A stretch of DNA of 64,000 nt from a virus (IMGVR_UViG_3300028558_000016:342014-406013), one strand, 5' to 3'; shown: positions 16,006 to 60,831, numbered from the stretch's first letter. Notes: generated by a model from the sequence alone, not told the origin. Translations and numbers: made by a program.

Positions 16006-16079
16006 AGAACTCCAAGTGGGGATCGAACCCACGACCAAAGGTTTTAGAGACCTACGTTCTACCACTGAACTATTGGAGC
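16006..16079 (-). tRNA. tRNA with anticodon CUA (amber suppressor); G1-U72, U73
   Basis: Reverse complement folds as a cloverleaf. D-stem gttc/gaac, anticodon loop cuCUAaa, T-arm gtggg-ttcgatc-cccac. The 27:43 position is a U-U mismatch. Confidence 0.55.
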
Positions 16080-24070: not shown

Positions 24071-24071
24071 T

Positions 24072-24623
24072 ATGGCGAACAATAATTTCAAAAGGCCTTA
24101 CAGGCCAATTCAGAAACAAAGGGAACACAAGATCAATGAAGAGATCAGACATCCCAATGTGAGAGTTACAGGTGATGACATTGAGTCACAGGTTGTAACC
24201 ATCCAAGAGGCATTGCGCATGGCAAGGGAAGCTGGAGTTGATCTCGTTGAGATTGCTCCAAGCGCAAACCCACCTGTGTGCAAGATAATCGAATATGGAA
24301 AACTCCTTTACGAGAAAAAGAGAAAAGACAAGGAGAATAAAAAGAACCAAGATCAGGTTGAAATAAAAGAACTTCGATTGACACCAAGCACAGACGAACA
24401 TGATTTGCAATTCAAATGCAACAATGCAATGAAATGGTTAGCTGATGGAAATAAAGTGAAAGCCGTTGTAGTATTCAAAGGAAGAATGATCAAATATAAA
24501 GAGATGGGAGAAATCCTTTTGCTTAAACTTTCTGTGATGCTCGAAGACCATGGAAAAGTTGAACAGCTACCAAAACTCGAAGGCTTCAAAATGACCATGA
24601 TGGTCATTCCAAAAAAGAAGTAA
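24072..24623 (+). CDS. infC: translation initiation factor IF-3
   Basis: REAGVDLVEIAPSANPPVCKIIEYGKLLYEKKRK and the C-domain KAVVVFKGRM...LPKLEG closely follow the IF3 pattern. Start taken at the ATG at 24072 (MANNNF). Confidence 0.8.
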   Translation: MANNNFKRPYRPIQKQREHKINEEIRHPNVRVTGDDIESQVVTIQEALRMAREAGVDLVEIAPSANPPVCKIIEYGKLLYEKKRKDKENKKNQDQVEIKELRLTPSTDEHDLQFKCNNAMKWLADGNKVKAVVVFKGRMIKYKEMGEILLLKLSVMLEDHGKVEQLPKLEGFKMTMMVIPKKK

Positions 24624-26262: not shown

Positions 26263-26264
26263 GG

Positions 26265-26340
26265 CTTGGCCGGAATCAGGGGACTGCGGATTCTAAACCC
26301 GCTGAACCGTGGGTTCGACTCCCACCCAGGCTACCAATTA
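26265..26340 (+). tRNA. degenerate tRNA-like gene with encoded CCA; anticodon-position loop uuCUAaa (CUA)
   Basis: Canonical T-arm gtggg-ttcgact-cccac. Acceptor ggcttgg/ccaggct with A73 and CCA encoded. D-arm short and poorly paired. Anticodon stem has 4 bp plus a mismatch. Confidence 0.4.
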
Positions 26341-32264: not shown

Positions 32265-32337
32265 CGCCTCATAGCTCAGTTGGCAGAGCGTCGGTCTCTA
32301 AAACCGATGGTCGTGGGTTCGAACCCCACTGAGGCGG
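32265..32337 (+). tRNA. tRNA with anticodon CUA (amber suppressor); C1-G72, G73
   Basis: Clean cloverleaf. Acceptor cgcctca/tgaggcg. D gctc-agttggca-gagc. Anticodon stem tcggt/accga with loop cuCUAaa. T-arm gtggg-ttcgaac-cccac. Confidence 0.75.
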
Positions 32338-32392
32338 CAAATAAAAAATAAGTAATATGAAAAAGTAGATTAACATCCGAGGTCCTGATGAA

Positions 32393-43997: not shown

Positions 43998-44293
43998 ATT
44001 TTTTAGTTTCAAATATAGTGCCTATATTTGCATTGTAAATAAAACTGAAACAAAGAAAGATATATAGAATAGAAGTAGAGATTGTGACGCTACCCTTTGA
44101 CAAATGATTAAGTAGAGTACGGGGTTTAATCTGAAAAAGCAAACCAATCGAAACTTCAAACATAATAACGAACATGAGATTTAATAATAATAATCAGCAA
44201 CAGTATCAACAGAATAATTATTCTGGTTGCGTGTTATTATTTTCTCCTGTCTCTGTTGATTGACAGTTAAGATTTTAAGAGAATAACACGCAA

Positions 44294-44320
44294 CCCGAAC
44301 CGAAACGTTCGGGTTTTTTA
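44294..44320 (+). terminator. rho-independent terminator
   Basis: cccgaac-cgaaac-gttcggg hairpin followed by tttttt. Confidence 0.6.
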
Positions 44321-44591: not shown

Positions 44592-44678
44592 GGGTAAGTT
44601 GCCGTAGTGGCCGAACGGTCCAGACTGTTAATCTGGTGAGAGCAATCTCCGTCGTGGGTTCGAATCCCACCTCGCCCT
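44592..44678 (+). tRNA. type II (long variable arm) tRNA with anticodon loop cuGUUaa; unusual combination
   Basis: Acceptor gggtaag/ctcgccc (one A-C mismatch). Long D-loop. Anticodon stem ccaga/tctgg. 17-nt variable arm. T-arm gtggg-ttcgaat-cccac. U73. Confidence 0.45.
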
Positions 44679-44685
44679 CAACTTT

Positions 44686-44758
44686 TGGAGATTAGCTCAG
44701 TTGGTAGAGCTGCTGGTTGTTAGCCAGATGGTCGCGGGTTCGATCCCTGCATCTCCAG
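44686..44758 (+). tRNA. tRNA-Asn(GUU)
   Basis: Cloverleaf with D gctc/gagc, anticodon loop uuGUUag, T gcggg-ttcgatc-cctgc. Confidence 0.65.
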
Positions 44759-44763
44759 CAAAT

Positions 44764-44835
44764 GCGCAAATAGCTCAGCGGTAGAGCAACCGGCTGTTAA
44801 CCGGTAGGTCGCAGGTTCGATCCCTGCTTTGCGCG
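44764..44835 (+). tRNA. tRNA-Asn(GUU)
   Basis: Acceptor gcgcaaa/tttgcgc. Anticodon stem accgg/ccggt with loop cuGUUaa. T gcagg-ttcgatc-cctgc. Confidence 0.7.
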
Positions 44836-45098
44836 CAAAAATAAAAGTAATGGAAACAAAAACATTTGGTGAATGGTTAGAATTTCTGCCATCAGAACAA
44901 TATCAAAGATTATCTTATGACGATAAGATGATTGCAACTATGAAATTGTTATTTGAGAAGGGTGAAAGAAACCCAAGTGCAATCACAGCAAAACTGTGGT
45001 ACTTGGGATTCAAGGAAGGAAGATTCACTGACATAAGAAAACTTGCTGAGCATCAATTCAAATTGTACTCACAAGCACAAGCAGAGAAAGTAAGATAA
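44829..45098 (+). CDS. hypothetical protein
   Basis: ORF lying between the two tRNA clusters. Confidence 0.35.
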   Translation: MRAKIKVMETKTFGEWLEFLPSEQYQRLSYDDKMIATMKLLFEKGERNPSAITAKLWYLGFKEGRFTDIRKLAEHQFKLYSQAQAEKVR

Positions 45099-45102
45099 AA
45101 AT

Positions 45103-45175
45103 TGTCCTGTGGTGTAACTGGCAACACGTGTGATTTTGGCTCATAAGAGTGCAGGTTCGAGCCCTGCCGGGACAA
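45103..45175 (+). tRNA. tRNA-Gln(UUG)
   Basis: U1-A72. D gtgt/acac. Anticodon stem tgtga/tcata with loop uuUUGgc. T gcagg-ttcgagc-cctgc. Confidence 0.65.
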
Positions 45176-45195
45176 CAGTTGAAATGGAAATATAT

Positions 45196-45279
45196 TGGGG
45201 ATCGCCGGAGTTGGAGAGCCGGGACAGTCTGTAAAACTGTTGACTTCGGTCTGAGTGGGTTCGAATCCCATGTCCCCAA
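45196..45279 (+). tRNA. tRNA-Tyr(GUA), type II
   Basis: Anticodon stem acagt/actgt with loop cuGUAaa. Variable arm with a gac/gtc stem. T gtggg-ttcgaat-cccat. A73. Confidence 0.65.
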
Positions 45280-45302
45280 CAGTTCTTTGAAAATAAATTT
45301 AT

Positions 45303-45417
45303 GGGGAAGTAGCTCAGTTGGCAGAGCAATAGAAAAAAGCGTATTCTGCCCAAGAATATTTACAGCAACACAAAAGTAAATCTGTGTGCGGCCGTTCGAA
45401 TCGGTCCTTCCCCACCA
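45303..45417 (+). ncRNA. tRNA-like gene with an insertion of about 40 nt and encoded CCA
   Basis: Acceptor ggggaag/cttcccc, then A and CCA. Canonical D-arm (gctc-agttggca-gagc) and T-arm (ggccg-ttcgaat-cggtc). The central 62 nt contain the hairpin tattct-gccca-agaata and no clean anticodon arm. Confidence 0.4.
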
Positions 45418-45418
45418 T

Positions 45419-45492
45419 GGGACATTCCATACTAATTGGTAAGTCACTCGGTTGTAACCCGAGAAATGGGGGTTCGAGTCCCTCATGTCCCA
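45419..45492 (+). tRNA. type I tRNA-like with anticodon loop uuGUAac (GUA) and a weak D-stem
   Basis: Perfect acceptor gggacat/atgtccc with A73. Anticodon stem ctcgg/ccgag. T ggggg-ttcgagt-ccctc. D-stem poorly paired. Confidence 0.45.
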
Positions 45493-45493
45493 C

Positions 45494-45577
45494 TGTACAG
45501 TATGCAAATTGGCGAAGCGAACAGATTTTGGATCTGTTGGAGTAATCCCGCTGCAGGTTCGAGCCCTGCCTGTATAA
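45494..45577 (+). tRNA. type II (Leu-like body, A73) tRNA with anticodon loop uuUUGga (UUG); unusual combination
   Basis: Acceptor tgtacag/ctgtata. D-loop aaattggcgaa. Anticodon stem acaga/tctgt. 15-nt variable arm with a gga/tcc stem. T gcagg-ttcgagc-cctgc. Confidence 0.45.
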
Positions 45578-45591
45578 CTAAAATTAAAAAC

Positions 45592-46656
45592 ATGGAACAA
45601 TTTCCACATAACGAAGAAGTAGACTTTAATAAAAAGTTGAATGTAAAATTTGGAATAGATCCAACTGCAGATAGATTGCATTTGGGACATTTGATACCTT
45701 TGCGATTTGCGAAGAAGATGTTAGACAATGGACATAACCTTGACATAGTGTTAGGAACGTTCACTGCGCAGCTTGGAGATCCTTCTGGAAAAGATTCAAT
45801 GAGACCTATATTGGACTCTGAAACTACTAAAGACAATGCAATTGCATTATTGCCTATCATCAGAAGGATTTTAAAGAAAGATTTTAATCTTCATTTCAAT
45901 CATGAATGGTTCAAAAGAATGAATGCGATTGATATGATCAACATTCTTTCTAAGTTTACAGCAAATCAATTGTTGTCGAGAGACTCTTTTCAAAAAAGAA
46001 TTTCAAATGAAGATGGAATTGGTATGCATGAATTAACTGTTCCTATTTTGCAAGGATTTGATTCTGTTCATTTGAAAACAGATCTCGAAATAGGAGGCAA
46101 CGATCAATTGTTTAACTTTAAAATAACAAGAGATCTGCAAAGAGCATTTAATCAAAAGCCGGAGATTTGCATGTTGATGCCAATAATCAATGGAACTGAT
46201 GGGAGAAAAATGAGCAAGACGTTTAAGAATTGCATTTTTCTCGATGACAGTCCCGTAGATGTTTTTGGGAAAACGATGTCCATATCTGATGAGTTGATGA
46301 AAGAATGGTTCATGGTTTTTATGGATGAATCAATAGGTCATCCAATGGAAGCAAAGAAAAAACTCGCATTTCAAATAACAAAAGAAGTGTGGGACGAAGA
46401 TAATGCTAAAATTGCATTGGAACATTTTGAAAGAGTAATACAAAAGAAGAATGTACCGGTAGAAATTAAGGACATTAAAGACACAGATATTTTAAAAGTC
46501 ATTATGGAATTACGTAAATGTTCTGCCACAGAAGCAAGAAGATTATTGTCGCAAGGAGCAGTTAAAGTCAATGATGAAAAAGCATTAGAAGAAAAGACCT
46601 TATCATCTGGAGACATTGTAAAGGTTGGTAAGCTGAACTTTGCTAAGATAATGTAA
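45592..46656 (+). CDS. tyrS: tyrosyl-tRNA synthetase
   Basis: FGIDPTADRLHLGHLIPL (HIGH region of the TyrRS type). KMSKT motif. C-terminal S4-like segment LLSQGAVKVNDEK...GDIVKVGK. Start taken at the ATG at 45592; the longer ORF overlaps the tRNAs. Confidence 0.75.
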   Translation: MEQFPHNEEVDFNKKLNVKFGIDPTADRLHLGHLIPLRFAKKMLDNGHNLDIVLGTFTAQLGDPSGKDSMRPILDSETTKDNAIALLPIIRRILKKDFNLHFNHEWFKRMNAIDMINILSKFTANQLLSRDSFQKRISNEDGIGMHELTVPILQGFDSVHLKTDLEIGGNDQLFNFKITRDLQRAFNQKPEICMLMPIINGTDGRKMSKTFKNCIFLDDSPVDVFGKTMSISDELMKEWFMVFMDESIGHPMEAKKKLAFQITKEVWDEDNAKIALEHFERVIQKKNVPVEIKDIKDTDILKVIMELRKCSATEARRLLSQGAVKVNDEKALEEKTLSSGDIVKVGKLNFAKIM

Positions 46657-46676
46657 AAAGAATTTTGTATATTTAC

Positions 46677-46749
46677 TGTCTCGTAGCGCAACTGGCAGAG
46701 CGCCTGATTCTGGATCAGGAGGTTGGAGGTTCGAGCCCTCCCGAGACAA
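46677..46749 (+). tRNA. tRNA-Gln(CUG)
   Basis: U1-A72 acceptor tgtctcg/cgagaca. Anticodon stem cctga/tcagg with loop uuCUGga. T ggagg-ttcgagc-cctcc. Confidence 0.65.
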
Positions 46750-46768
46750 CAATTAAAACATAAATAAT

Positions 46769-48328
46769 ATGTCAAGAAAAGTAAGAGTAAGATTTGCCCC
46801 GTCACCGACAGGGCCACTTCACATGGGTGGCGTAAGAACCGCCTTGTATAATTATCTCTTTGCTAAAAAGCACGGAGGTGATTTCATTTTAAGAATAGAA
46901 GATACAGACAAAGACAGATTTGTTCCTGGCGCAGAAGCTTACATCATTGAAGCTTTGAATTGGTGTGGAATAACTCCTAACGAAGGAATAGATGGAAATT
47001 CTGTTCTTGATACATACAAGCAATCAAAAAGAAATGAGGCTGGAATATACAATCCTTATGTTGCAAAATTAATTGCAGAAGGAAATGCATATTACGCATT
47101 TGATACTAAAGAAGATCTTGACGCATTGAGAACTTCTGTTTCTGAAAAAAGAAAAGCAGGATTAAAAGTAAGAGAATTCGCTTATGGTGTTTTCACAAGA
47201 GAATTATTGAACAACAGCTTGAACATGACTGCCGATGAATTGAAAGCAAGATTGGATGCTGGAATTCCTTATGTCATTCGTTTGAAGATGCCTAAGGAAG
47301 TTGAAATTAAATTCGTTGATTTGATCAGAGGTGCTGTCACTGTAAAAAGTCACACCATCGATGATAAGGTTATATTCAAGAGCGATGGACTTCCAACATA
47401 CCATTTGGCAAATGTTGTTGACGATCACTTGATGGACATTTCTCACGTCATTAGAGGTGAGGAGTGGTTGCCATCGGCACCGTTGCACGTCATGCTATAC
47501 AAGATGTTAGGTTGGGAAGATACCATGCCTGAGTTTGCACACCTTCCTTTGATCATGGGACCAAGCGGTAAATTGAGCAAGAGAGATGGAGATACATTGG
47601 GATTTCCTGTATATCCTTTAAAGTATACAGATCCAAAAACATCTGAGACATCGAGCGGTTACCGTGAGAATGGTTTCTTGCCAAGTGCATTCAATAACAT
47701 GGTTGCATTTCTTGGTTGGAATCCAGGTGGCACCGATGAGGTATTCACAATGGATGAAATGATCGATAAATTCTCTTTGGATAGAGTAGGAAAATCAGGA
47801 GCTAAATTCGATTTGAAGAAGGCTAATTGGTTCAATCACCAACACATGATGAAGTCTGATAATGATGACTTGGCAAAATTATGGATCAGCAATGGAGGAT
47901 TATACAATGGAGCCATGGGTGTTTGGTCTACTGATGCGACAAAACAACGTGTTGATTCATTTGAATATGTTTCAAAGGTTTGTGGATTGCTTAAAGAGAA
48001 GGTTTCTAACATCAATGATTTTTGGAATTCTGGAAAATATTTCTTTATTGCGCCTGAGCCAAGTCTTGGAACAGAACATTCTTCGTTCTTGGCAGAAGTA
48101 ATTGCAAACATAACTAAGGATGAAGTGTTCAATCACGATTCTTTAAGAGCTGTGTTTGATGCTTCAGTTAAGGCAACCGGTGTTGACGCAAGAGAGGCTG
48201 GAATGGTTTTAAGGATTGCTGTAACAGGAATGAAAGTTGGTCCACCTTTATTTGATGCAATGGAATTGATAGGTAAAAATGAATCAATAAACAGAATAGC
48301 ATCTAACGTGGTAGTCAATCATGAGTAA
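46769..48328 (+). CDS. gltX: glutamyl-tRNA synthetase
   Basis: VRFAPSPTGPLHMGGVRTALYNYLFAKKHGG (HIGH region). KLSKR motif. 519 aa, typical GluRS architecture. Confidence 0.75.
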   Translation: MSRKVRVRFAPSPTGPLHMGGVRTALYNYLFAKKHGGDFILRIEDTDKDRFVPGAEAYIIEALNWCGITPNEGIDGNSVLDTYKQSKRNEAGIYNPYVAKLIAEGNAYYAFDTKEDLDALRTSVSEKRKAGLKVREFAYGVFTRELLNNSLNMTADELKARLDAGIPYVIRLKMPKEVEIKFVDLIRGAVTVKSHTIDDKVIFKSDGLPTYHLANVVDDHLMDISHVIRGEEWLPSAPLHVMLYKMLGWEDTMPEFAHLPLIMGPSGKLSKRDGDTLGFPVYPLKYTDPKTSETSSGYRENGFLPSAFNNMVAFLGWNPGGTDEVFTMDEMIDKFSLDRVGKSGAKFDLKKANWFNHQHMMKSDNDDLAKLWISNGGLYNGAMGVWSTDATKQRVDSFEYVSKVCGLLKEKVSNINDFWNSGKYFFIAPEPSLGTEHSSFLAEVIANITKDEVFNHDSLRAVFDASVKATGVDAREAGMVLRIAVTGMKVGPPLFDAMELIGKNESINRIASNVVVNHE

Positions 48329-49385
48329 TATGCCAATAGGAATCCAAGCAATGGGTCCAGCCGAAGTAATAACGGAAATGTTTCTTCGTCCTGGATCCAT
48401 TTCTGCTTATAGAGAGCAGATGGATCTGCTTGATAAAAACAAGGAACATATTTCTGTTCACGATGGATTTTCTATAATAACTTTCTGGGAACCTGCAACG
48501 AAGGCTTTCAATGCCGGCTGGAAGATGAGAGTTGTTTATGGCGAAGTAAAAGAAAAGAAATATTTTGTAAAAGATAATTGGAAAAACAAAACAGTTTATT
48601 CTGGTGCAAGGCCTGAATGCGAAAAATACGTTCAGGGAAATAACACATATCAATTAAATTATTCTCGTTTGACAATCGAAATTAATTCAACTCTCGATGA
48701 TAAGTTGGATGAATTAAAAAAGATTATTTCTGACTCAACAAAGCCAGATGAGAACGAATTGCGTTTTGCAAAGGCTACATCTAATTGGATCAAGGGTCCT
48801 GTCATGGGTTGGTTGAATGATAACAAGCTTGATTTCACCACTCGTTCTAAACCATCTCATCATAAATCATTAGTCACTGGAAATCTTTTCGACTATGAAA
48901 AATATTCTGCCATTGATGAAGAGAAGTGGTGGCCTAAAGATTCTCCTGATGCAAAACTTTATTTGCCTCTTCCTAAAGACGAATATCCTTACACAGTCGT
49001 GTATTCTGAAGAGGAGAGTAATTTTCCAATAAAATCTGAACATTTAAAAGAATTAATAAGCTTGGTTGAATTTACAGATCTTATTAGTTTCTCTACTGCT
49101 TCCAAAACTGTTTTTCCTGAGATGATCAAAAATCCAGATGAAAAACCTTGGGATATAATTCAAAGATTAAATTTGATGCAAAGCAATGATGATGATGCCA
49201 TCAAACAAATGGCCAAAGATGCTTTAGCAAAATATCCCGACAAGGTTGAAGAATATAGGAAAGGAAAGAAGGGAGTTCTCAGCCTGTTCATGGGCGAAGT
49301 AATGAAAGCCGGTAAAGGAAAAGTAAATCCGCAAATGGCTTCAGAAATAGTAAAAAATCTTTTGGAAGAAAAGGAGGGAGCATAA
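48321..49385 (+). CDS. protein with a C-terminal GatB/YqeY-like domain
   Basis: C-terminus EEYRKGKKGVLSLFMGEVMKAGKGKVNPQMASEIVKNLL matches the GatB/YqeY pattern (GkekalgfLvGqvMk.tkGkanP..v.e.l). The N-terminal ~280 aa are unrecognised. Confidence 0.5.
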   Translation: MSNMPIGIQAMGPAEVITEMFLRPGSISAYREQMDLLDKNKEHISVHDGFSIITFWEPATKAFNAGWKMRVVYGEVKEKKYFVKDNWKNKTVYSGARPECEKYVQGNNTYQLNYSRLTIEINSTLDDKLDELKKIISDSTKPDENELRFAKATSNWIKGPVMGWLNDNKLDFTTRSKPSHHKSLVTGNLFDYEKYSAIDEEKWWPKDSPDAKLYLPLPKDEYPYTVVYSEEESNFPIKSEHLKELISLVEFTDLISFSTASKTVFPEMIKNPDEKPWDIIQRLNLMQSNDDDAIKQMAKDALAKYPDKVEEYRKGKKGVLSLFMGEVMKAGKGKVNPQMASEIVKNLLEEKEGA

Positions 49386-49399
49386 CTGCTCCCACTTTC

Positions 49400-49588
49400 T
49401 TATTTAACTGTAGATGTTGCAACAACTGTAGGAGTTGCAATCACTGAAGCAGCTTCAACTGCTTTACAAGTATCAACACACGCTTTCGTTGTGTCACAAA
49501 CTTCATTAACAACTTCAACTTCCGTTTTAGGAGTTCCACATGCAGCAAACATCGTCGTTGCAATAATTAAAAGTACAATCTTTTTCAT
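49400..49588 (-). CDS. small lipoprotein/secreted peptide
   Basis: Signal peptide MKKIVLLIIATTMFAACG with a lipobox-like Cys. Confidence 0.4.
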   Translation of the reverse strand: MKKIVLLIIATTMFAACGTPKTEVEVVNEVCDTTKACVDTCKAVEAASVIATPTVVATSTVK

Positions 49589-50298: not shown

Positions 50299-50371
50299 CG
50301 GGGTGTAGCGCAGTTGGTAGCGCGCGTGGTTTGGGGCCATGAGGTCGTCGGTTCGAGCCCGGCTACCCCGA
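50299..50371 (+). tRNA. tRNA-Pro(UGG)
   Basis: C1-G72 acceptor cggggtg/taccccg with A73. D gcgc/gcgc. Anticodon stem cgtgg/ccatg with loop uuUGGgg. Confidence 0.65.
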
Positions 50372-50498
50372 CAGAAAAAGTCCTGTGATTGACAAGAGTG
50401 TGTAAACCTTACAGGAAACGCACGGCTCCGCAGAGGAGTTAGAACTGGAATTGAGGGATACCAGATTGTTGATCGAATGGAAAATTGTTCTTTGAAAT

Positions 50499-50572
50499 GT
50501 GGGAGTAGCTGAGTTGGTTCAAGCGCCAGACTGAAAATCTGGAGTAGATCGGTTCGAGACCGATGTCTCACA
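50499..50572 (+). tRNA. tRNA-Phe(GAA)
   Basis: Anticodon stem ccaga/tctgg with loop cuGAAaa. T atcgg-ttcgaga-ccgat. A73. Confidence 0.6.
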
Positions 50573-50620
50573 CGAGTTTTGTTTTTCCAAGGTTTTGTTT
50601 TTCACAAATCAAAACCACCA

Positions 50621-50693
50621 CGAGGTGTGGCGAAGTTGGTATCGCGCCTGGTTTGGGACCAGGAGATCGCAGGTTCGAGCCCTGTCACCTCGA
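50621..50693 (+). tRNA. tRNA-Pro(UGG)
   Basis: Acceptor cgaggtg/cacctcg (C1-G72) with A73. Anticodon stem cctgg/ccagg with loop uuUGGga. Confidence 0.7.
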
Positions 50694-50704
50694 CAAATGG
50701 AAAT

Positions 50705-50777
50705 GTGGATGTAGCTCAGTTGGTAGAGCACTGCCCTGAAGAGGCAGGTGTCGGGGGTTCGAATCCCTCCATCCACA
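50705..50777 (+). tRNA. tRNA-Phe(GAA)
   Basis: Acceptor gtggatg/catccac. D gctc/gagc. Anticodon stem ctgcc/ggcag with loop cuGAAga. Confidence 0.7.
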
Positions 50778-50784
50778 CGGCGCT

Positions 50785-50803
50785 GTCCCATGAGGGACTT
50801 TTC
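50785..50803 (+). terminator. short hairpin terminator after the tRNA cluster
   Basis: gtccc-atga-gggac hairpin followed by ttttcg. Confidence 0.4.
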
Positions 50804-51042
50804 GTTGAGTATCTGCGGTTGAAATACCGATACAGTCAGACGTGACTTCAAGATGAAACTAAACAGAAAAATGGAAACACTACGGTAAAAGTCCGGGAGG
50901 CAGCGGCAGAATTAAATAGGAAACACCAACAACAGACTAAAAGTTGTTTTGTACGAAGCCCGCTTAAGAAGCGTCGTAGCAATGTCAAGGTGAGTTACAA
51001 AAGAGTCCGTGGGGACACAAAAAACTTTTCCTATTTTAAAAT

Positions 51043-51117
51043 TGACGCATAGCTCAGTTGGTTCAGAGCATCTGCCTTACAAGCAGAGGGTCGGGGGTTC
51101 GAATCCCTCTGCGTCAA
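51043..51117 (+). tRNA. tRNA-Val(UAC)
   Basis: Acceptor tgacgca/tgcgtca. Anticodon stem tctgc/gcaga with loop cuUACaa. T ggggg-ttcgaat-ccctc. Confidence 0.7.
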
Positions 51118-51118
51118 C

Positions 51119-51436
51119 ATGGAAAAGAAATTACAGGACAGCTTGGATGCCTTTAAAAATTTAATGGATAACATGTCTGAGGAAGAATTAGCAGAAATAA
51201 AAGCAAAGTATTTCACAGAAGATGAAATACCAGAAGGCTGGGTTGACATTGAAGAACATTTGCCAATGGTTACATGTCAAGATTTTCTCGACAACGATGC
51301 AATAGTGAAATTCATCAAGGTCAAGGATAAAGACGGAAATATTTTTGATGATCAAGTTGGAGACCATCACATGTGGTACTACAGAGCAAAGGAAGCTGGA
51401 ATAACACATTGGTGGAATGAAGTTGAAGAAGAATAA
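51119..51436 (+). CDS. hypothetical acidic protein
   Basis: ORF starts 2 nt after the tRNA-Val. Confidence 0.4.
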   Translation: MEKKLQDSLDAFKNLMDNMSEEELAEIKAKYFTEDEIPEGWVDIEEHLPMVTCQDFLDNDAIVKFIKVKDKDGNIFDDQVGDHHMWYYRAKEAGITHWWNEVEEE

Positions 51437-51441
51437 AACAT

Positions 51442-51517
51442 TGCCCTATCGCTTAGTTGGTTTTAAAGCGTCTCGCTTACAACGAGAAGATCATCGGTTC
51501 GACTCCGGTTAGGGCAA
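51442..51517 (+). tRNA. tRNA-Val(UAC)
   Basis: Acceptor tgcccta/tagggca. Anticodon stem tctcg/cgaga with loop cuUACaa. T atcgg-ttcgact-ccggt. Confidence 0.7.
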
Positions 51518-51518
51518 C

Positions 51519-51776
51519 ATGAAAGATGAAAGTAAAATAACAACTCAGCAATTCAAATTTATTTCTGAATTGCTTTGGGGTGGAGTTCCCGTTGACCGGG
51601 TACAAGCTGAAGAGTCTGCGATGTTCAAAGCGAACGCGCCAAAAATATTAGAGGAATATCCTCTATTGGATAAATCATTTTTTGAAAAACATAGTAAAAA
51701 CAAAGGTTATGAAATTGTCAAAAGTAAAAATATACAAGATGAACAAGGTAGGCAAGGAGAAATTGTCGACGGCTGA
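51519..51776 (+). CDS. hypothetical protein
   Basis: ORF. Confidence 0.35.
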   Translation: MKDESKITTQQFKFISELLWGGVPVDRVQAEESAMFKANAPKILEEYPLLDKSFFEKHSKNKGYEIVKSKNIQDEQGRQGEIVDG

Positions 51777-52839
51777 TTTATTGGAAAGAACCGGCTACAT
51801 AAAACAAGTCTCATCTGGATTGTTCGTTCAGATGCACTTTATGAAGTTGGTGATGAATAACATCGAAAAGATCGTTAGAGAAGAACTAAACAAAATAAGC
51901 GCCTTGGAAATTGGATTGAACCAGTTACAAGGCGCTGAAGTTTGGAAGCAAACCGGTCGCTATAATGATTATGGCGCTGAGATGTTCAAGCTCAAGGATC
52001 GTTCAGATAAGGAGATGGTGTTCACAGGAACAAACGAAGAACTCGTGACTGTTGTTGCAAGAGAATATGTGGAGTCATATAGAGATTTGTCTTTCACATT
52101 CTATCAGATAAACAATAAGTTCAGAGATGAAATTCGCTGTAACACAGGTCTGATTAGATGTAAAGAGTTTCTCATGATGGATGCATATTCATTTCATGTT
52201 AACAAAGAAGATCTCGAAATTAGATATAATGAAATAAGAAATTGTTATATTGCCATATTCGATCGACTCAAACTGAAATACAGAATTGAAACTGCAGATT
52301 CAGGAGAGATTGGCGGATCTGTTTCAGAGGAATTCATAGTTGAAACAAGTGATGGAGATATTGAGATAGGACACATTTTCCAATTAGACACAAAATACTC
52401 GTCCAAGCTTGAAGCACAATTCATAGATGAAAAAGGCGAAAAGCAGGACATAGTGATGGGATGTTATGGAATAGGAATTTCTCGATTGGCCCAGGTTCTT
52501 GCAGACATTAACAGAGATGGAAATAATCTCAATTGGTCAAGAGAACTTGCAGCATACAGTCATGCAATCATTGTGGCAGATGTGAGGAACGAAGAACAAA
52601 TGAGGATTGCTGAAAAGATATACGATGAATTGAAAAGAAAAAAGAAGAACGTATATCTCGATGACAGAAATCTTCGTGTTGGCGAAAAGCTTACCGAAGC
52701 TGACATCCTTGGTTCTGCGAATAAAATTTTAATAGGTAAAAATATAAGTGAAAATAATTTTGAGGTGAAGAAAAATTCAAACGATGCATGGGAAAAAATG
52801 TCCATGGAAAGCTTGGATTACTTCTTGGAACTTCAGTAA
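51682..52839 (+). CDS. proS: prolyl-tRNA synthetase (compact form without an editing/insertion domain); start uncertain (51682, 51709 or 51739)
   Basis: YQINNKFRDEIRCNTGLIRCKEFLMMDAYSFH matches ProRS motif 2 (YQIQTKFRDEvRPRfGvmRsREFLMKDAYSFH). C-terminal class II anticodon-binding-like region. Confidence 0.65.
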   Translation: MKNIVKTKVMKLSKVKIYKMNKVGKEKLSTADLLERTGYIKQVSSGLFVQMHFMKLVMNNIEKIVREELNKISALEIGLNQLQGAEVWKQTGRYNDYGAEMFKLKDRSDKEMVFTGTNEELVTVVAREYVESYRDLSFTFYQINNKFRDEIRCNTGLIRCKEFLMMDAYSFHVNKEDLEIRYNEIRNCYIAIFDRLKLKYRIETADSGEIGGSVSEEFIVETSDGDIEIGHIFQLDTKYSSKLEAQFIDEKGEKQDIVMGCYGIGISRLAQVLADINRDGNNLNWSRELAAYSHAIIVADVRNEEQMRIAEKIYDELKRKKKNVYLDDRNLRVGEKLTEADILGSANKILIGKNISENNFEVKKNSNDAWEKMSMESLDYFLELQ

Positions 52840-52851
52840 AAAGTAGAAATA

Positions 52852-53391
52852 ATGAAAGCAGTTTATATTGGCGAATACGTCAAAGAAAAAATGTTCGATA
52901 GGTTATTGAACGAAGTGGCCTGGGCCAATAAGGAAGCTCCAAGAGACGAATGCTTTATGGCATTGGAATCTTTGGAATATACTTATGGAAAAGGATTCAC
53001 AAGAACGTACACTTCTTTAGAAATGCACGTTGAAGTGTTGGGCATCATGAAAAAGATGAACGACGAAATGGGAACCGAGTATAACGTTTGCTTCTTGAAT
53101 TATTACAAGAGCGAAAAAGAACACTTAGGTTGGCATGCAGATGATTCTCCTGAAATGGATGAGACACACCCAATAGGTGTTGTATCATTTGGAGCTGAGA
53201 GATACATTTGGACGAAAAATAAGGACTACAGGGGAAACATTCCTGATGAAGATAAGTATTTATTAGGGGATGGTTCTTTGTTTATCATGCCTGCAGGTTT
53301 CCAAAAGGATAACTTGCACAAGATACCAAAGAATGACAAACCTTGTGGAGGAAGAATTAGTTTAACATTTAGAAAATTCATAAACAAATGA
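52852..53391 (+). CDS. AlkB-like 2OG-Fe(II) dioxygenase
   Basis: LGWHADDSPE...PIGVVSFG...GDGSLFIMPAG...H...GRISLTFRKF follows the AlkB pattern HxD...H...RxSxTFR. Confidence 0.55.
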   Translation: MKAVYIGEYVKEKMFDRLLNEVAWANKEAPRDECFMALESLEYTYGKGFTRTYTSLEMHVEVLGIMKKMNDEMGTEYNVCFLNYYKSEKEHLGWHADDSPEMDETHPIGVVSFGAERYIWTKNKDYRGNIPDEDKYLLGDGSLFIMPAGFQKDNLHKIPKNDKPCGGRISLTFRKFINK

Positions 53392-54032
53392 GAAGATTTA
53401 AAATAAAACAAACAGAAGACCAGCGGGTCTATTACACGTCGGACACCCATTATGCGCACGCGAATATGTGTCGCGGAGTTTCGCAATGGGGCGACCTGGA
53501 TAACAGCACGAGGAACTTCAAAACTCTAATAGAGATGAACAACGAACTTGTGAATGCGATCAATAGAACCGTTAGGCCCAAAGACATACTCTTCCATTGT
53601 GGAGACTGGTCGTTTGGAAACGTGAGCAACGTTGCGGAGTTCAGGAGAAGAATACATTGCGAGAATGTGCACATCATATACGGAAACCATGATGATCACA
53701 TAGAAGACGATGAGACCCTACATGGGCATTTCTCTTCTGTACAACATTACAAGGAATTGGCAATCGATGGAGATATGCTTTGCTTGTTTCACTACAAGCA
53801 GACTATATGGAATAAAAGTCATCGTGATGCTTATCACTTGTATGGTCACTCGCACGCAGGTGCTGAACACATGGTTAACGGAAGATCCATGGATGTTGGA
53901 GTTGACAACGCTTACAAGTTGCTTGGAGAATACAGACCTTTTTCTCACGAGGAAGTTTTGTACTTCTTGAAAGGAAGAAAACAGAAAGCCATAGATCACC
54001 ATGGCGCTAAAGGTACTGAGTCACACAAATGA
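53388..54032 (+). CDS. calcineurin-like metallophosphoesterase
   Basis: YYTSDTHYAH, HCGDWSFG and YGNHDDH resemble the phosphoesterase signature motifs. Confidence 0.55.
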   Translation: MRRFKIKQTEDQRVYYTSDTHYAHANMCRGVSQWGDLDNSTRNFKTLIEMNNELVNAINRTVRPKDILFHCGDWSFGNVSNVAEFRRRIHCENVHIIYGNHDDHIEDDETLHGHFSSVQHYKELAIDGDMLCLFHYKQTIWNKSHRDAYHLYGHSHAGAEHMVNGRSMDVGVDNAYKLLGEYRPFSHEEVLYFLKGRKQKAIDHHGAKGTESHK

Positions 54033-54652
54033 AACAGTATCCGTCCATATCCCATTATGATGATTCGATGATCGGAACACCGATGCTCGCATTCAACAAG
54101 ATTGACGGAAGCAATCTGCGGTTTGAGTGGAGCAAGAAGAAGGGATGGAATAAATTCGGAACAAGAAGAACCATACTAAATGAAAAAGATCCACTCTACA
54201 TCGGAGTGGATCTTTTCTTATATAAATATGCTAACAAGCTTGAGGAGATATTCAAGGACGATAAAGATTTCAGAGGAATAAGAGAAGTTGTTGTATTCTG
54301 TGAGTTCTTTGGGCCAAACAGCTTTTATGGACAGCATGATTTCATTGACATGGATGTCGTCTTGTTGGACGTCAATCCAATGACAAAGGGATTCATAAAT
54401 CCAAGAGAGTTCGTAAAGAAGTTTGGAAAGCTTGGAATTCCTGAAATAGTTTTTGACGGAATATTAACGGCTGAGATGGTTGATGAGATCAGAAATTCTG
54501 ATTTAAAAGAAGGTGTGGTGTGCAAGTGGAACAACAACAGACATCTGCATACGGCAAAGATCAAAACTTATAAATGGCTCAATGAATTAAAAGCAAGATA
54601 TGGGCAGGAAGCATTGGACGAAGAATTTGGAAACATTAAATTAATATCATGA
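54029..54652 (+). CDS. nucleotidyltransferase-type polynucleotide (RNA) ligase-like protein
   Basis: FNKIDGSNLRFEW (motif I, KxDG) and LKEGVVCKW (motif IV/V-like). 207 aa is small for a ligase. Confidence 0.45.
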   Translation: MKQYPSISHYDDSMIGTPMLAFNKIDGSNLRFEWSKKKGWNKFGTRRTILNEKDPLYIGVDLFLYKYANKLEEIFKDDKDFRGIREVVVFCEFFGPNSFYGQHDFIDMDVVLLDVNPMTKGFINPREFVKKFGKLGIPEIVFDGILTAEMVDEIRNSDLKEGVVCKWNNNRHLHTAKIKTYKWLNELKARYGQEALDEEFGNIKLIS

Positions 54653-54990
54653 CAAAAACTACAAAGAAGGTTAAATCAAAAACCAAAAAGAAAGCAACGA
54701 GAACTTTAAAATCTCATCCATTGGAAAAGAAGTCAGTTGTTAAGAAAGTGGAAAAAGTGATGAAAGATATAAAGAATGGATTGAAGGTAGGAGGAAAGAT
54801 TGACATGGCATTTCACGGAGCTGGAGTCACCTCGCACGAAAATAAAACAATCGCAAATTACGATGACAATTTCATCTGGATTGATTGCGAGAACACAGAA
54901 GGTGAATTTTATAAGTTCAACAGAAAGACTGGTAAATGCGTCAATGACAATACATTCGGAGGTTTCTCGAGAACAATAAAACCTCAATAA
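54649..54990 (+). CDS. hypothetical basic protein
   Basis: ORF. Confidence 0.35.
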   Translation: MTKTTKKVKSKTKKKATRTLKSHPLEKKSVVKKVEKVMKDIKNGLKVGGKIDMAFHGAGVTSHENKTIANYDDNFIWIDCENTEGEFYKFNRKTGKCVNDNTFGGFSRTIKPQ

Positions 54991-55178
54991 TTTTGCGTAT
55001 ATTGCACTTGTCTCATTGAAAGATAGCACAACGTGGGAGCGGGCTTTAAAAAGCTCCTTTTCAGAAACGATCCATAAATTAGTGCGTCAATAGCAAGCCA
55101 ATAAAGATTCGGATGCATGGACCGAAAGATTGGAGGTGGGGTGGAGAATCGGGAATCCCCCTTTCAATGAAGACACAA

Positions 55179-55252
55179 GACTGCGTAGCTCAGTTGGTTA
55201 GAGTGCTTCCTTGACATGGAAGAGGTCAGCGGTTCGAATCCGCTCGTGGTCA
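55179..55252 (+). tRNA. tRNA-Val(GAC)
   Basis: Acceptor gactgcg/cgtggtc (2 G-U pairs). D gctc/gagt. Anticodon stem cttcc/ggaag with loop uuGACau. T agcgg-ttcgaat-ccgct. Confidence 0.55.
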
Positions 55253-55265
55253 CTAAAATAAAAAT

Positions 55266-55728
55266 AATGTTTTGGTTTAATTTCGCTTTAACAGCATGGT
55301 TTACGTTGGTGCTCATCAACGCTTTATTTATTTTCGATGTTGACATCCTTTTCAAGTTTGTCTGGTCAGACAATCACGGGTTCATCCCCATAAGCAAAAT
55401 AAGTGGAAAATTTGGACAAGGAATGATTGGACTTACCAATGAATATAAAGATTCAAAATACAGACTCAAACCATATTTAAGAATTCGTTGTAAACAAAGA
55501 TATTATAGAGCAATAGAAAAGAGCAATAAGGATGAAATACTTATTATAAATACAATAGCTGGAAGAAAGGAATACAAAGGATATTCTGAATTATGGAAAG
55601 ATTCTTCTTTTAAGGAAGCAAGTCACTCCGAGAGAATAGAAACATCTTATATAAATCCAAACTTTATTCAATTTACATTAACTTGGCCCAAATGGGAGGA
55701 AGATAAAACTCCTACTTTAGAAGAATAA
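55266..55728 (+). CDS. hypothetical protein with an N-terminal TM helix
   Basis: Start taken at the ATG downstream of the tRNA (MFWFNFALTAWFTLVLINALFIF). Confidence 0.35.
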
Positions 55729-55823
55729 CGAATATTTTTCATTTTTGTTAACGAGATGGTGCTAATAACACCATTTTTATTTTATGAGAAAATTGATTAT
55801 ATTTGTAATAATGTAAATCTGAT

Positions 55824-56564
55824 ATGAGAGTCTTCATTCCAAAAGGTAAAAATGGTTTATTCATTTCTAATGAAATAATAACGGAATGCACCTATGCAGC
55901 ATTCTTTGGTTTTTCCACAATGGGATGGGAAGTGGAATTTTACGAAGGAGATCCTCCAACAGGTTTATCAAGAGATGACGTTGTCATCGGTTGGATAACA
56001 GGAGTTAAGATGGCAGTTAAGAATTTAGGAATTGAACCTCCAACGGAAATAGATTATCCCGAAGAACTCAATGAATACCTTGGAAGAAAAATATGGCAGA
56101 GCAATCTCCATAAAGTTTATACAGATGATTCAATGTGGCCAGTGTTCGTTAAACCTGTAAAAGGAAAACAATTTGATGGAAAACTTGTAACAAGCCTAAA
56201 GGATTTAGTTGGCCTTGGTTCACAGGAAGACCGAAAGATTTGGTGTTCTGAACCTATTAAGTTTATTTCCGAGTGGAGATGCTTTGTACGATATGGAAAA
56301 ATGATCGACAGCAAAAACTACAAAGGTGATTTTAAAGTTCAACCAAACTTTCACATTATTGAAGCTTGCATAAAAGATTACGTTAGCCAGCCGGTAGCAT
56401 TCACCATAGATTTTGGAGTTACCGATGATGGAAAAACTCTATTAATAGAAGTAAATGATGGTTATGCTTTCGGTACTTATGGATTATCTCCATTAAACAC
56501 TGCAAAAATGCTATCTGCTCGTTGGAGTGAGATGGTAGGAATTCCTGACCCTTGTCAATTTTAA
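55824..56564 (+). CDS. hypothetical protein
   Basis: ORF. Confidence 0.4.
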   Translation: MRVFIPKGKNGLFISNEIITECTYAAFFGFSTMGWEVEFYEGDPPTGLSRDDVVIGWITGVKMAVKNLGIEPPTEIDYPEELNEYLGRKIWQSNLHKVYTDDSMWPVFVKPVKGKQFDGKLVTSLKDLVGLGSQEDRKIWCSEPIKFISEWRCFVRYGKMIDSKNYKGDFKVQPNFHIIEACIKDYVSQPVAFTIDFGVTDDGKTLLIEVNDGYAFGTYGLSPLNTAKMLSARWSEMVGIPDPCQF

Positions 56565-59015: not shown

Positions 59016-59428
59016 AGAACAAGACATTAATAAAATACGCGAGAACCCTTTTGAAAGAATTGCTTGCTAAATGCTCTGAGCCGCAACAGTTGTTATTTAA
59101 GAGAATGTACAATCATAAGAATTTGGAAGCGCCAATCAATGAAGCAGTTGATCAGATGGAACCCGATAAACTGGATTGGGCTGTGACTCAGGTAGAAGAA
59201 ACGATTAAAAAGAACAATAGATTTTTAACTTGCAAAAAAGATTTGTTTAAATCAACATACCAATCTAATGCTTTCATAGATGGAAAAATATATGAAGTTT
59301 CCTTTGATAAGAACTACGAGGAAAATGAAAATGAAATTTGGATAAAAGATGAAACAGGCAGACCGTTCACATTCACGAAAGTAAATTCATTTGGAATGTA
59401 TAAAGTCGAAGATTATTTTGAATTATGA
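59012..59428 (+). CDS. hypothetical protein
   Basis: ORF. Confidence 0.35.
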   Translation: MKNKTLIKYARTLLKELLAKCSEPQQLLFKRMYNHKNLEAPINEAVDQMEPDKLDWAVTQVEETIKKNNRFLTCKKDLFKSTYQSNAFIDGKIYEVSFDKNYEENENEIWIKDETGRPFTFTKVNSFGMYKVEDYFEL

Positions 59429-60831
59429 GTTACGATAAATACATATCAACAACACTTCCATACGCGAACTCTGTTCCGCACATGGGTCATGCTCTTGAAC
59501 TAATTCAAGGGGATGCGCTCAAGCATTTTTTCGAATCTATAAAGAATGAAAAAGTATTCTTCAATATAGGTGTTGACGAACATGGATTAAAGGTCTATAC
59601 AAAGGCACAAGAACTTGGAATTGACACCAAGCTTTATTTGAATGAACTGACGCATAAATGGCAGGACTTTTGTAAGTTGTTCCAAATTGATTATGACAAC
59701 TTCTATAGAACAACGAGTCTTGTTCACATAGCAAGAACCCAAAGATTTTGGACTAAGTGTCTCGAGAGAGGAGATCTTTACAAGAAGAAGTATTCTGGAA
59801 AATATTGCGCTGGATGTGAATCATTTAAAACTGAAGCAGATCTCGTAGATGGAAAATGCCCAGACCATAATATCGAACCCTCTATAATAGAAGAAGAGAA
59901 TTGGTTCTTTAGAATTTCTAAGCATAAAGGATTATTATATGGATGGTTGAAGAGCAATCCTGATTTTTTATCGCCAAGGTCTAAAACTTCCGAACTTGAA
60001 AACATAATACTTCAATCTGAAGATATTTCAGTTTCTCGTTTAAAGGTAAATGTTCCATGGGGAGTTGGAGTTCCAAATGATGAAGATCAAGTCATTTATG
60101 TTTGGTTTGAAGCTCTTCTTAATTATATCTTCGCTGTGGATGATTTTAATGATCAATACTTCATACAAATATGTGGTCCAGACAATTTAAGATTTCAGGG
60201 ATCATTATTCCAAAATATTTTGATTTCTGCAAATATTCCAAACACCAAGAAATTATTGGTTCATGGAACTGTTCTCGATGCCGAAGGTAAAAAGATGTCC
60301 AAGTCACTTGGTAACGTGGTTGATCCAATTGATCAATTAAACAAATATGGATTGGATGCTGTAAGATATTACACGCTTGCAGGTTTATCCACCTATGGTG
60401 ATGGAGCGTGGTCTGAAAAGGATTTAATAAAAACCTACAATTCTGAATTGGCAGATACTTATGGAAATTTATTGGCAAGGGTTCTTCATTTGATAGACAC
60501 CAAGAATGTTGATGTAATTCCACCAACAGCAGAACATAAGAGACACGTTGATTCAATAGTGTATTCAGTTCACACCAATTGGGAATTCTATGAAATCCAA
60601 AAAGCAATAAAGGAAACTGGCTGGATAATCAATTTCGGAAATAAGTACATGAATGATGAAAAACCGTGGGAAAAAGATAAAGATTACGTGCAAATTCTAA
60701 GCAATCTGTACTATTCTTTATGTGAAGCAAATAAGTTATATTTACCTGTTTTATCATCTAAAACGTGGTCACTGATAGAAGAAGCATTGAAGATAAAAAA
60801 GAAAGTAATAATATTTCAGAAAATAGTATAA
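59425..60831 (+). CDS. metG: methionyl-tRNA synthetase (compact)
   Basis: PYANSVPHMGHA (HIGH-like, cf. PYANGSIHLGH). Zn knuckle CAGCESF...CPDH. KMSKSLGNVVDP. Confidence 0.7.
   Translation: MSYDKYISTTLPYANSVPHMGHALELIQGDALKHFFESIKNEKVFFNIGVDEHGLKVYTKAQELGIDTKLYLNELTHKWQDFCKLFQIDYDNFYRTTSLVHIARTQRFWTKCLERGDLYKKKYSGKYCAGCESFKTEADLVDGKCPDHNIEPSIIEEENWFFRISKHKGLLYGWLKSNPDFLSPRSKTSELENIILQSEDISVSRLKVNVPWGVGVPNDEDQVIYVWFEALLNYIFAVDDFNDQYFIQICGPDNLRFQGSLFQNILISANIPNTKKLLVHGTVLDAEGKKMSKSLGNVVDPIDQLNKYGLDAVRYYTLAGLSTYGDGAWSEKDLIKTYNSELADTYGNLLARVLHLIDTKNVDVIPPTAEHKRHVDSIVYSVHTNWEFYEIQKAIKETGWIINFGNKYMNDEKPWEKDKDYVQILSNLYYSLCEANKLYLPVLSSKTWSLIEEALKIKKKVIIFQKIV

Follow-up and report, generated by a model that had tools for sequence, protein, structure and literature searches.

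Introduction

In the amidotransferase GatCAB, the cradle of the GatB subunit does the chemistry and binds GatA and GatC, and the helical and tail modules of GatB grip the D-loop and elbow of tRNA-Gln and tRNA-Asn. The tail separates these two tRNAs from tRNA-Glu and tRNA-Asp and has been fused to glutaminyl-tRNA synthetase (GlnRS) at least twice in evolution; the N-terminal tRNA-binding domain of eukaryotic GlnRS also resembles GatB. Contacts to the D-loop and the variable loop are made by a basic motif and a hydrophobic D-loop pocket (Nakamura et al., PMC2811023). In GlnRS from Deinococcus radiodurans, a fused C-terminal YqeY domain enhances the affinity for tRNA-Gln (PDB 2HZ7; PMC1865053). 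Phage proteins with a YqeY/GatB tail are represented by gp65 of Pseudomonas phage pf16, encoded beside tRNA clusters (PMC5587285), and by a protein of the zeta-crAss phage Lera (PMC12386605). For huge phages, tRNAs, synthetases and initiation factors have already been described, including a glutamyl-tRNA synthetase (GluRS) close to the GluRS of Bacteroidetes (Al-Shayeb et al., PMC7162821). Here we analyze a block of genes in a 64,000-nucleotide stretch of viral DNA (IMGVR_UViG_3300028558_000016:342014-406013; the whole stretch is called the window), where a gene for tRNA-Gln(CUG) is followed by a GluRS gene and by an open reading frame (ORF), ORF3, whose product ends in a GatB/YqeY domain.

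Results

ORF3 Is a Non-catalytic Derivative of GatB

A first-pass annotation, made from the sequence of the window alone, had proposed a contiguous block encoding tyrosyl-tRNA synthetase (TyrRS), tRNA-Gln(CUG), GluRS and a GatB/YqeY-domain protein. All four are present, on the plus strand and head to tail in the order TyrRS, tRNA-Gln(CUG), bacterial-type GluRS and ORF3, a protein of 354 residues with a GatB_Yqey C-terminus (Table 1). Searches with the Pfam profiles GatB_Yqey and tRNA-synt_1c gave E-values of 7.5e-32 for ORF3 and 1e-85 for GluRS, and the GatB/YqeY assignment was upheld by profile (PF02637; 110.7 bits, gathering score 27) and by fold.

Among solved structures, ORF3 most resembles the C-terminal part of GatB chains and, in second place, the YqeY tail of the D. 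radiodurans GlnRS. Using hhalign, a profile of 17 family members aligned with residues ~313-486 of GatB only (100% probability, E = 2.3e-47). In an AlphaFold2 model, the mean predicted local distance difference test (pLDDT) value per 10-residue block amounted to 72-93 over residues ~150-350, and a Foldseek search with this model ranked GatB highest, ahead of the yeast GlnRS tRNA-binding domain and, in third place, YqeY from Bacillus subtilis. GatB equivalog models, when applied to ORF3, reached at most 89 bits (cut-offs 314-680), the YqeY family PF09424 gave no match at E ≤ 0.01, and 1NG6 was a weak structural match (E = 0.59). The GatB_N cradle domain PF02934, which contains the kinase/transamidase site, did not match ORF3 either, and no alignment to the cradle was obtained, in line with the earlier statement that the block shows no amidotransferase catalytic domain. 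From the agreement of sequence, profile and fold we therefore conclude that ORF3 is not an amidotransferase subunit but corresponds to the tRNA-sensing half of one. It is a non-catalytic GatB derivative comprising the helical and YqeY-tail modules only, which has lost the cradle and gained a beta module.

The N-terminal 140 residues of ORF3 have no match in Pfam, PHROG or NCBIfam and do not align with the GatB cradle; this region is only partly common to the closest relatives. In the helical motif that follows, A152, N155, W156, G159 and P160 are invariant. The beta module (~57 residues) has no counterpart in GatB according to hhalign, and AlphaFold2 predicts five strands for it with a mean pLDDT of 72-90 per 10-residue block. 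It is located at the N-terminus in relative L176 (8541-9350) and in protein P0014 and inside the helical domain in other members. Because it is N-terminal in two relatives and lies within the helical domain in the window, the beta module behaves as an independent, retained unit, and the sequence comparison indicates a domain that has moved within one small family. In the tail, the basic motif RKGKK aligns with KNGKGK of Staphylococcus aureus, and M324, M328, G333, V335 and P337 correspond to positions V/M452/G457/A459/P461 of the pocket segment; both features are almost unchanged throughout the family, with residues G315, K316, F323, G325, K334 and P337 invariant.

The tail of ORF3 is most similar to GatB from Bacteroidota (for instance Chitinophagaceae and Schleiferiaceae), with 47-50% identity. 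The family itself is small, with 15 close members among 5.8 billion clusters, and a profile search yielded 47 matches below 1e-30, mainly to short stand-alone proteins. ORF3 had no PHROG match, and no relatives were found in a scan of IMG/VR. In a metagenome scan, almost exclusively bacterial gatB genes were recovered, together with three short phage-like contigs. A structure search of BFVD gave only weak matches to small, tail-like phage proteins, among them the 'putative Glu-tRNA amidotransferase subunit B' of Rhizobium phage P10VF.

A tRNA-Gln(CUG)-GluRS-GatB-Tail Trio Is Conserved in Diverged Phages

In the window, the ATG of ORF3 at position 48321 overlaps the stop codon of the GluRS gene (48326-48328) by 8 nt; an alternative ATG is found at 48330. 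A GluRS gene immediately upstream of a tail gene, either overlapping or at most 22 nt away, was encountered in six lineages, represented by the window, L090/L091, a JGI contig, L005-L007, L176 and L177, in which the identity to the GluRS of the window drops to 56-58%. GluRS P0047 and tail protein P0007, each encoded on a 2,957-nt contig, probably constitute a seventh lineage with this adjacency. A tRNA-Gln(CUG) gene lies directly upstream of the GluRS gene in 5/5 lineages whose DNA was examined (window, L090, L005, L176 and L177). The genes preceding the trio vary with the lineage and encode TyrRS, Pyr_excise or AlkB-like proteins. At least five diverged phage lineages have kept the trio of tRNA-Gln(CUG), GluRS and GatB tail despite their differing flanks, which bears out the pairing of tRNA-Gln and GluRS suggested by the first-pass annotation. 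L004 lacks the GluRS gene, and its tail gene follows directly on a tRNA-Gln(CUG) with a long arm.

The tRNA-Gln(CUG) of the window has a U1-A72 pair and A73. The phage tRNA-Gln share with bacterial tRNA-Gln the cloverleaf, an anticodon CUG or UUG and the first pair U1-A72, and depart from the identity set for Escherichia coli GlnRS by A73 in place of G73, by U3-A70 and by G37 (identity set: PMC3927822). No tRNA-Glu was present in any of the tRNA islands compared, that is, in the window and its relatives. The motif TAtaTTTa upstream of tRNA-Gln(CUG), which had been taken for promoter-like, did not hold up as such: it does not match the Bacteroidota -7 consensus TAnnTTTG, this consensus shows no enrichment, with 85 matches in the window against 79.6 ± 8.9 expected, and sigma-70-like sites in the window occur at chance level.

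The Phage GluRS Has Lysine at the Position of Arg358

The GluRS of the window passed the equivalog model gltX_bact (TIGR00464) with 423.5 bits (cut-off 290) and possesses the class I signature motifs PLHMGG and KLSKR. The arginine involved in Glu binding is also kept, with R8 aligning with R5 of the Thermus thermophilus enzyme. Its closest solved structures are PDB 6B1Z and 6BRL (2e-142), which we take to be those of Elizabethkingia GluRS, and it is 50-53% identical to many enzymes from Bacteroidota.

In GluRS from T. thermophilus, Arg358 reads C36 of tRNA-Glu and is a determinant of the discriminating type. The corresponding residue is lysine in 18/18 GluRSs of the phage clade, whereas among 72 cleanly extracted cellular Bacteroidota GluRSs it is arginine in 66 (~92%), lysine in 4 and serine in 2. 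In a rough neighbour-joining tree, the phage GluRS clade is monophyletic and stands apart from the few cellular enzymes of the lysine type, and a derivation of the Lys411-type GluRS from one particular cellular clade was not supported. Lysine in place of Arg358 is a real and fixed difference at a key position.

Two GluRS matches of 770 and 642 residues (P0045 and P0057), considered as possible fusions of GluRS and tail, turned out to be internal assembly duplications. Two Chitinophagales GluRSs (genomes L159 and L168) form a long-branch clade with serine at the position of Arg358; the tRNA specificity of these cellular enzymes may differ, and relatives of this order encode GatB.

The Block Has No Amidotransferase Chemistry of Its Own

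Besides the 60 ORFs of the window, genes called in ~10 kb on either side were examined, so that ~84 kb of 482 kb was covered. Within this range, neither an Amidase (GatA), a GatC, a GatB cradle nor a GlnRS was found; the search for catalytic GatA, GatB or GatC subunits beyond the block, through which the proposed route to Gln-tRNA(Gln) might have been completed, was thus negative for the 64-kb window and both flanks. The block by itself cannot convert Glu to Gln. Since the cradle, GatA and GatC are lacking, ORF3 is capable neither of amidotransferase chemistry nor of the usual assembly with GatA and GatC. Among 14 Bacteroidetes genomes surveyed, 12 have GlnRS and no gatCAB, and one (Fluviicola) uses the indirect route (PMC3927822). 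Lineages with GatCAB do exist among the possible hosts, because the tail of ORF3 stems from a Bacteroidota GatB. A non-discriminating route to Gln-tRNA(Gln) would be plausible.

Genomic Context of the Block

The window has a G+C content of 36.5%, and its plus strand is densely coding. Proteins of the window have identical copies on contigs of 482,059 and 482,156 bp, and its GluRS shares 46% identity with the enzyme of the 735-kb phage LR756501. Pfam gave no match for the large ORFs, and weak PHROG matches link one ORF to head closure and another to spanins. For these reasons, a giant or huge phage of ~482 kb and of Bacteroidota type is the most reasonable source. Terminator-like hairpins enclose the tRNA array, TyrRS, tRNA-Gln, GluRS and ORF3 (Table 1). 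The block is a real, co-oriented unit inside the translation island of a huge phage, and it is probably co-transcribed.

Table 1. Features of the synthetase block and the tRNA array preceding it (window coordinates; a dot marks features without strand).
Position	Strand	Feature	Evidence
44292..44315	.	Two-way hairpin resembling a terminator; the tRNA/synthetase unit probably begins here	9-bp stem, 5 G-C pairs, then T run
44592..44679	+	tRNA of class II shape (long variable arm), Asn anticodon GUU, 88 nt	ARAGORN; Rfam 38 bits
44686..44836	+	Two ordinary class I tRNA-Asn(GUU), 44686-44759 and 44764-44836	
45103..45176	+	tRNA-Gln(UUG), class I, U1-A72, A73	
45196..45280	+	tRNA-Tyr(GUA), class II (bacterial type), U1-A72, A73	
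45303..45417	+	tRNA-like gene; acceptor, D and T arms normal, CCA encoded, ~40 extra nt in anticodon region	Direct reading and fold
45419..45493	+	tRNA of class I shape, Tyr anticodon GUA, G1-C72, A73	Rfam 33.4 bits
45494..45578	+	tRNA-Gln(UUG), class II shape, long variable arm; acceptor stem UGU..., U1-A72, A73	
45592..46656	+	TyrRS, bacterial type, C-terminal S4 domain, 354 residues	Pfam tRNA-synt_1b 4.6e-57, S4 5e-06
46677..46750	+	tRNA-Gln(CUG), 18 nt upstream of GluRS start codon	ARAGORN; Rfam tRNA 59.8 bits
46769..48328	+	GluRS, Bacteroidota type, 519 residues; Lys411 at the T. thermophilus Arg358 position	tRNA-synt_1c 1e-85, Anticodon_2 1e-20
48321..49385	+	ORF3, 354 residues	Pfam GatB_Yqey PF02637, residues 233-348, E = 7.5e-32
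48321..48752	+	ORF3 residues 1-144, lineage-specific N-terminal region, fold not recognised	mean pLDDT per 10-residue block <50 (1-80), 47-72 (81-140)
48753..48833	+	ORF3 residues 145-171, start of GatB-type helical domain, motif AxxNWxxGP	hhalign vs GatB
48834..49013	+	ORF3 residues 172-231, phage-specific beta module (...KSLxTGNxF...IDEEKW...LPLPxDEYPYT)	
49014..49385	+	ORF3 residues 232-354, remaining helical domain and YqeY-type tail; basic motif RKGKK and D-loop pocket segment FMGEVMKAGKGKVNP kept	
49376..49393	.	Two-way hairpin resembling a terminator, overlaps the ORF3 stop codon; the unit probably ends here	

TyrRS passed the NCBIfam equivalog model tyrS (TIGR00234) with 291.6 bits (cut-off 113.8). 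Genes for Tyr tRNAs lie directly upstream of it, as had been noted; the supposed Tyr-like tRNA at 45494-45578, however, is a tRNA-Gln whose variable arm is long. The ProRS of the island adjoins tRNA-Pro, a cognate pairing like that of TyrRS with tRNA-Tyr.

Several tRNAs of the array have switched their shape class, in that the Asn anticodon GUU and the Gln anticodons UUG/CUG occur on long-arm bodies and the Tyr anticodon GUA on a short-arm body. Homologues of these odd tRNAs were found in L090, L004, L005, L176 and L177. In the class II tRNA(GUU), the cloverleaf and the helix of the variable arm are held by compensatory changes (13/25 pairs, four phage lineages), and the class II tRNA-Gln, which shares its acceptor stem and T arm with the phage tRNA-Gln(UUG), shows such changes in 12/22 pairs across four lineages. 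For the class I tRNA(GUA), 10/21 pairs have compensatory changes; its homologues in L090 and L004 were called tRNA-Tyr, and the anticodon on this short-arm body is GUA in three lineages but GUU in L005, the fourth. The unorthodox tRNAs reported beside the synthetases are therefore conserved in four lineages, with compensatory changes, and in our view they are the most curious feature of the island. The tRNA-like gene at 45303-45417 was called by neither ARAGORN nor Rfam; its extra ~40 nt lie between the halves of a plausible anticodon stem (ATAGA/TCTGT), and it may contain a small intron.

Three genes for amber-anticodon tRNA(CUA) are present in the window, at 16007-16079 (-), 26263-26336 (+) and 32265-32338 (+); two of them, which share 80% identity, scored strongly with Rfam, and the third was called by ARAGORN only. 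The ORF at 25195-26262 terminates in a TAG that abuts a tRNA(CUA) gene. Downstream of the block, at 50299-51518, tRNA-Pro(UGG), tRNA-Phe(GAA) and tRNA-Val(UAC) are each encoded in two clearly differing copies, and in relative L010 one copy of tRNA-Pro has 87 nt.

The wider translation island (22536-23438, 24018-24623, 51682-52839 and 59425-60831 of the window) encodes initiation factor 3 (IF3), a short class II synthetase-like protein with weak matches to GlyRS and HisRS, a ProRS of 385 residues without the middle of the profile, MetRS and, just outside the window, the peptidyl-tRNA hydrolase PTH2 (L094 4173-4565). The region at 52852-56564, downstream of the synthetase block, encodes an AlkB-like 2OG-Fe(II) oxygenase, a Metallophos_2 protein, an RNA ligase and an R2K ATP-grasp protein; this run of genes, conserved with identical order in relative L177 (7031-9898), suggests RNA repair or modification. 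A small ORF at 49400-49588 (-) converges on ORF3; its product has a lipoprotein-like N-terminus and a weak match to an Rz-like spanin PHROG (E = 3e-04).

Discussion

From its homology to the tRNA-sensing part of GatB, ORF3 is likely to bind tRNA. That it works with GluRS has, in our estimate, about an even chance, and we are equally divided over the more specific proposal that ORF3 would assist the phage GluRS as a non-catalytic cofactor that binds tRNA. Produced together with GluRS from the overlapping genes and acting as a separate protein, ORF3 would raise the affinity or the selectivity of the synthetase for a phage tRNA, most probably the tRNA-Gln encoded upstream, and would do in trans what the fused YqeY domain does for the GlnRS of Deinococcus. 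A candidate for docking is the beta module. More tentatively, and with somewhat less than even confidence, we suggest that GluRS might form Glu-tRNA(Gln), which would be passed to the host GatCAB for completion. The trio probably helps the phage to charge its own tRNAs.

A number of observations weigh against a cofactor role for ORF3. The YqeY domain of Deinococcus is effective only in cis, within the same polypeptide (PMC1865053), and simple action in trans is therefore disfavoured; moreover, no fusion of GluRS and tail was found among the GluRS matches. Tail proteins occur without an adjacent GluRS in four lineages (L004, L008/L009, L092 and L093), where their genes neighbour those for RtcB, RNA ligase, Macro, NUDIX, R2K or MetRS, and downstream of the phage-clade GluRS P0052 no recognisable tail gene was detected. 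Synteny among related phages is partly inherited and to that extent not independent evidence. The AlphaFold2 model of ORF3 has a mean pLDDT of only 69, and its N-terminal 140 residues are uninterpretable. As to the non-discriminating GluRS proposed by the first-pass annotation, lysine at the position of Arg358 in all phage-clade enzymes speaks for it, but the exchange of arginine for lysine is conservative and keeps the positive charge, four cellular Bacteroidota enzymes also have lysine, and the role of Arg358 varies by lineage (PMC3927822).

The best-surviving alternative, which we consider rather doubtful, is that GluRS is an ordinary discriminating enzyme charging tRNA-Glu only, that the tail protein serves tRNAs in general, as a chaperone or cofactor, and that the position of tRNA-Gln reflects an inherited island layout. 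The enzyme indeed passes gltX_bact and shares 50-53% identity with Bacteroidota GluRSs, and lysine would preserve the charge of Arg358, but lysine is found in every phage enzyme and in only 6% of the cellular ones. In favour of this alternative, the window uses about two Glu codons for every Gln codon (59 vs 28 per 1000); against it, no island contains a tRNA-Glu. A host without the indirect route would fit the finding that most Bacteroidota have GlnRS without gatCAB (PMC3927822); the GatB tail, however, evolved for tRNA-Gln and tRNA-Asn and rejects tRNA-Glu (PMC2811023). Tail genes without a neighbouring GluRS in four lineages speak for this alternative, and retention of the trio while its surroundings rearrange speaks against it.

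A role in the protection or repair of tRNAs seems improbable to us. The tail protein would bind Asn, Gln and Tyr tRNAs of the phage or the host at their elbow and either shield them from host nucleases or present cleaved tRNAs to phage repair enzymes, as part of an anti-defence strategy. It is known that phages can oppose tRNA-targeting defences with tRNAs of their own (PMC10264068, PMC11555353), and Asn, Tyr and Gln tRNAs of altered structure are supplied by the island. Genes for RtcB, RNA ligase, Macro, NUDIX and R2K proteins adjoin homologues of ORF3, and AlkB-like, Metallophos, RNA ligase and R2K genes are located just downstream in the window and in L177; the tight, overlapping coupling, though, is with GluRS and not with repair genes. 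Furthermore, ORF3 has no nuclease-inhibitor or repair domain, and a repair role is known for no GatB/YqeY module.

It is very unlikely that ORF3 is a decoy, a dead GatB tail that competes for the D-loop of tRNA-Gln or tRNA-Asn and thereby blocks or redirects the indirect pathway of the host during takeover. The complete loss of the cradle and of the GatA/GatC interface would suit a decoy, and with 47-50% identity of the tail to Bacteroidota GatB C-termini, GatCAB-bearing lineages are plausible donors or hosts, but the phage itself needs to decode Gln and Asn codons and devotes genes to tRNA-Gln and tRNA-Asn, and the coupling to GluRS would be left unexplained. Least likely of all is a code-change module in which GluRS and the tail protein charge amber-suppressor tRNA(CUA) and TAG thereby becomes a codon for Gln or Glu: despite the three tRNA(CUA) genes, the rarity of TAG stop codons (3/60 curated ORFs of the window) and the existence of TAG-recoded phages whose synthetases are rarely identified (bioRxiv 10.1101/2021.08.26.457843), this idea founders mainly because tRNA(CUA) is unlike the phage tRNA-Gln (acceptor stems and anticodon loops differ, and its nearest relatives are other tRNAs) and because no in-frame TAG was found in long ORFs of the window or its flanks, and the suppressor genes are also 14-30 kb away from the block.

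Returning to ORF3 as a cofactor of the phage GluRS, a bolder version of this proposal can be formulated, although we regard it as unlikely. The Lys411-type GluRS and the GatB-tail protein might form a phage-specific 'pseudo-transamidosome' for the phage's own tRNA-Gln, within an orthogonal set that combines synthetases with structurally re-engineered tRNAs (tRNA-Gln and tRNA-Asn with long arms, tRNA-Tyr with a short arm) and that would keep translation running and insulated from host tRNA-targeting defences, with Glu-tRNA(Gln) being handed to host GatCAB or deliberately used as is.

If a cofactor role for ORF3 is true, a free-standing tail that travels with GluRS and tRNA-Gln would be a natural experiment in which a separate tRNA-sensing domain may retune the specificity of a synthetase, and it would show a virus managing the Glu/Gln branch of decoding without encoding amidotransferase chemistry. 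The block and the class-switched tRNAs are compact, cloneable parts for asking whether huge phages build partly orthogonal synthetase/tRNA pairs, which is relevant to phage-host conflict over tRNAs and to the engineering of orthogonal translation. Should GluRS be an ordinary discriminating enzyme, the finding shrinks to another accessory tRNA-binding protein in an island of known type. The mechanism of the module is directly testable.

Comparison With Known Systems

Like GlnRS from D. radiodurans, the block associates a GatB/YqeY tail module with a synthetase of the glutamyl-/glutaminyl-tRNA synthetase (GlxRS) family, and ORF3 matches that chain (E = 1e-08) as well as the NCBIfam fusion model NF011291 over its tail. 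In contrast to the Deinococcus enzyme, the partner is a GluRS, the tail is part of a separate polypeptide, and ORF3 has an extra beta module and a variable N-terminus. With GatCAB and the glutamine transamidosome (PDB 3IP4, 3AL0; PMC2811023), ORF3 shares homology over GatB residues ~313-486, including the basic motif and the pocket, and the association with a GluRS and a tRNA-Gln. Unlike the transamidosome, which consists of GluRS, tRNA-Gln and GatCAB, the block encodes only the tRNA-sensing part of GatB and no cradle, GatA or GatC. A GatB-like tRNA sensor has also been recruited to a GlxRS enzyme in the N-terminal domain of eukaryotic GlnRS (PDB 3TL4), the fourth structural match of ORF3; that domain, however, is eukaryotic and fused in cis, and the match is weak (E = 0.35).

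Pf16 gp65 and the proteins of P10VF and Lera are, like ORF3, small, reduced to the tail module and encoded in tRNA-related blocks, and their function has only been speculated upon. They are remote in sequence, lack the beta module and have not been reported to be coupled to GluRS and tRNA-Gln. The published islands of huge phages (PMC7162821) resemble the present one in their many tRNAs, several synthetases and IF3, and the 'semi-autonomous decoding subsystem' put forward in the first-pass annotation is therefore not a novel idea. Their GluRS genes, in contrast, have no adjoining tRNA-Gln or tail gene: when the GluRS loci of LR756501, LR756504 and LR745206 were inspected for synteny of the trio, neither was found nearby. 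The trio is specific to the phage lineage described here, and what is new is the conserved module of tRNA-Gln, GluRS and GatB tail, the beta module and the fixed lysine at the position of Arg358.

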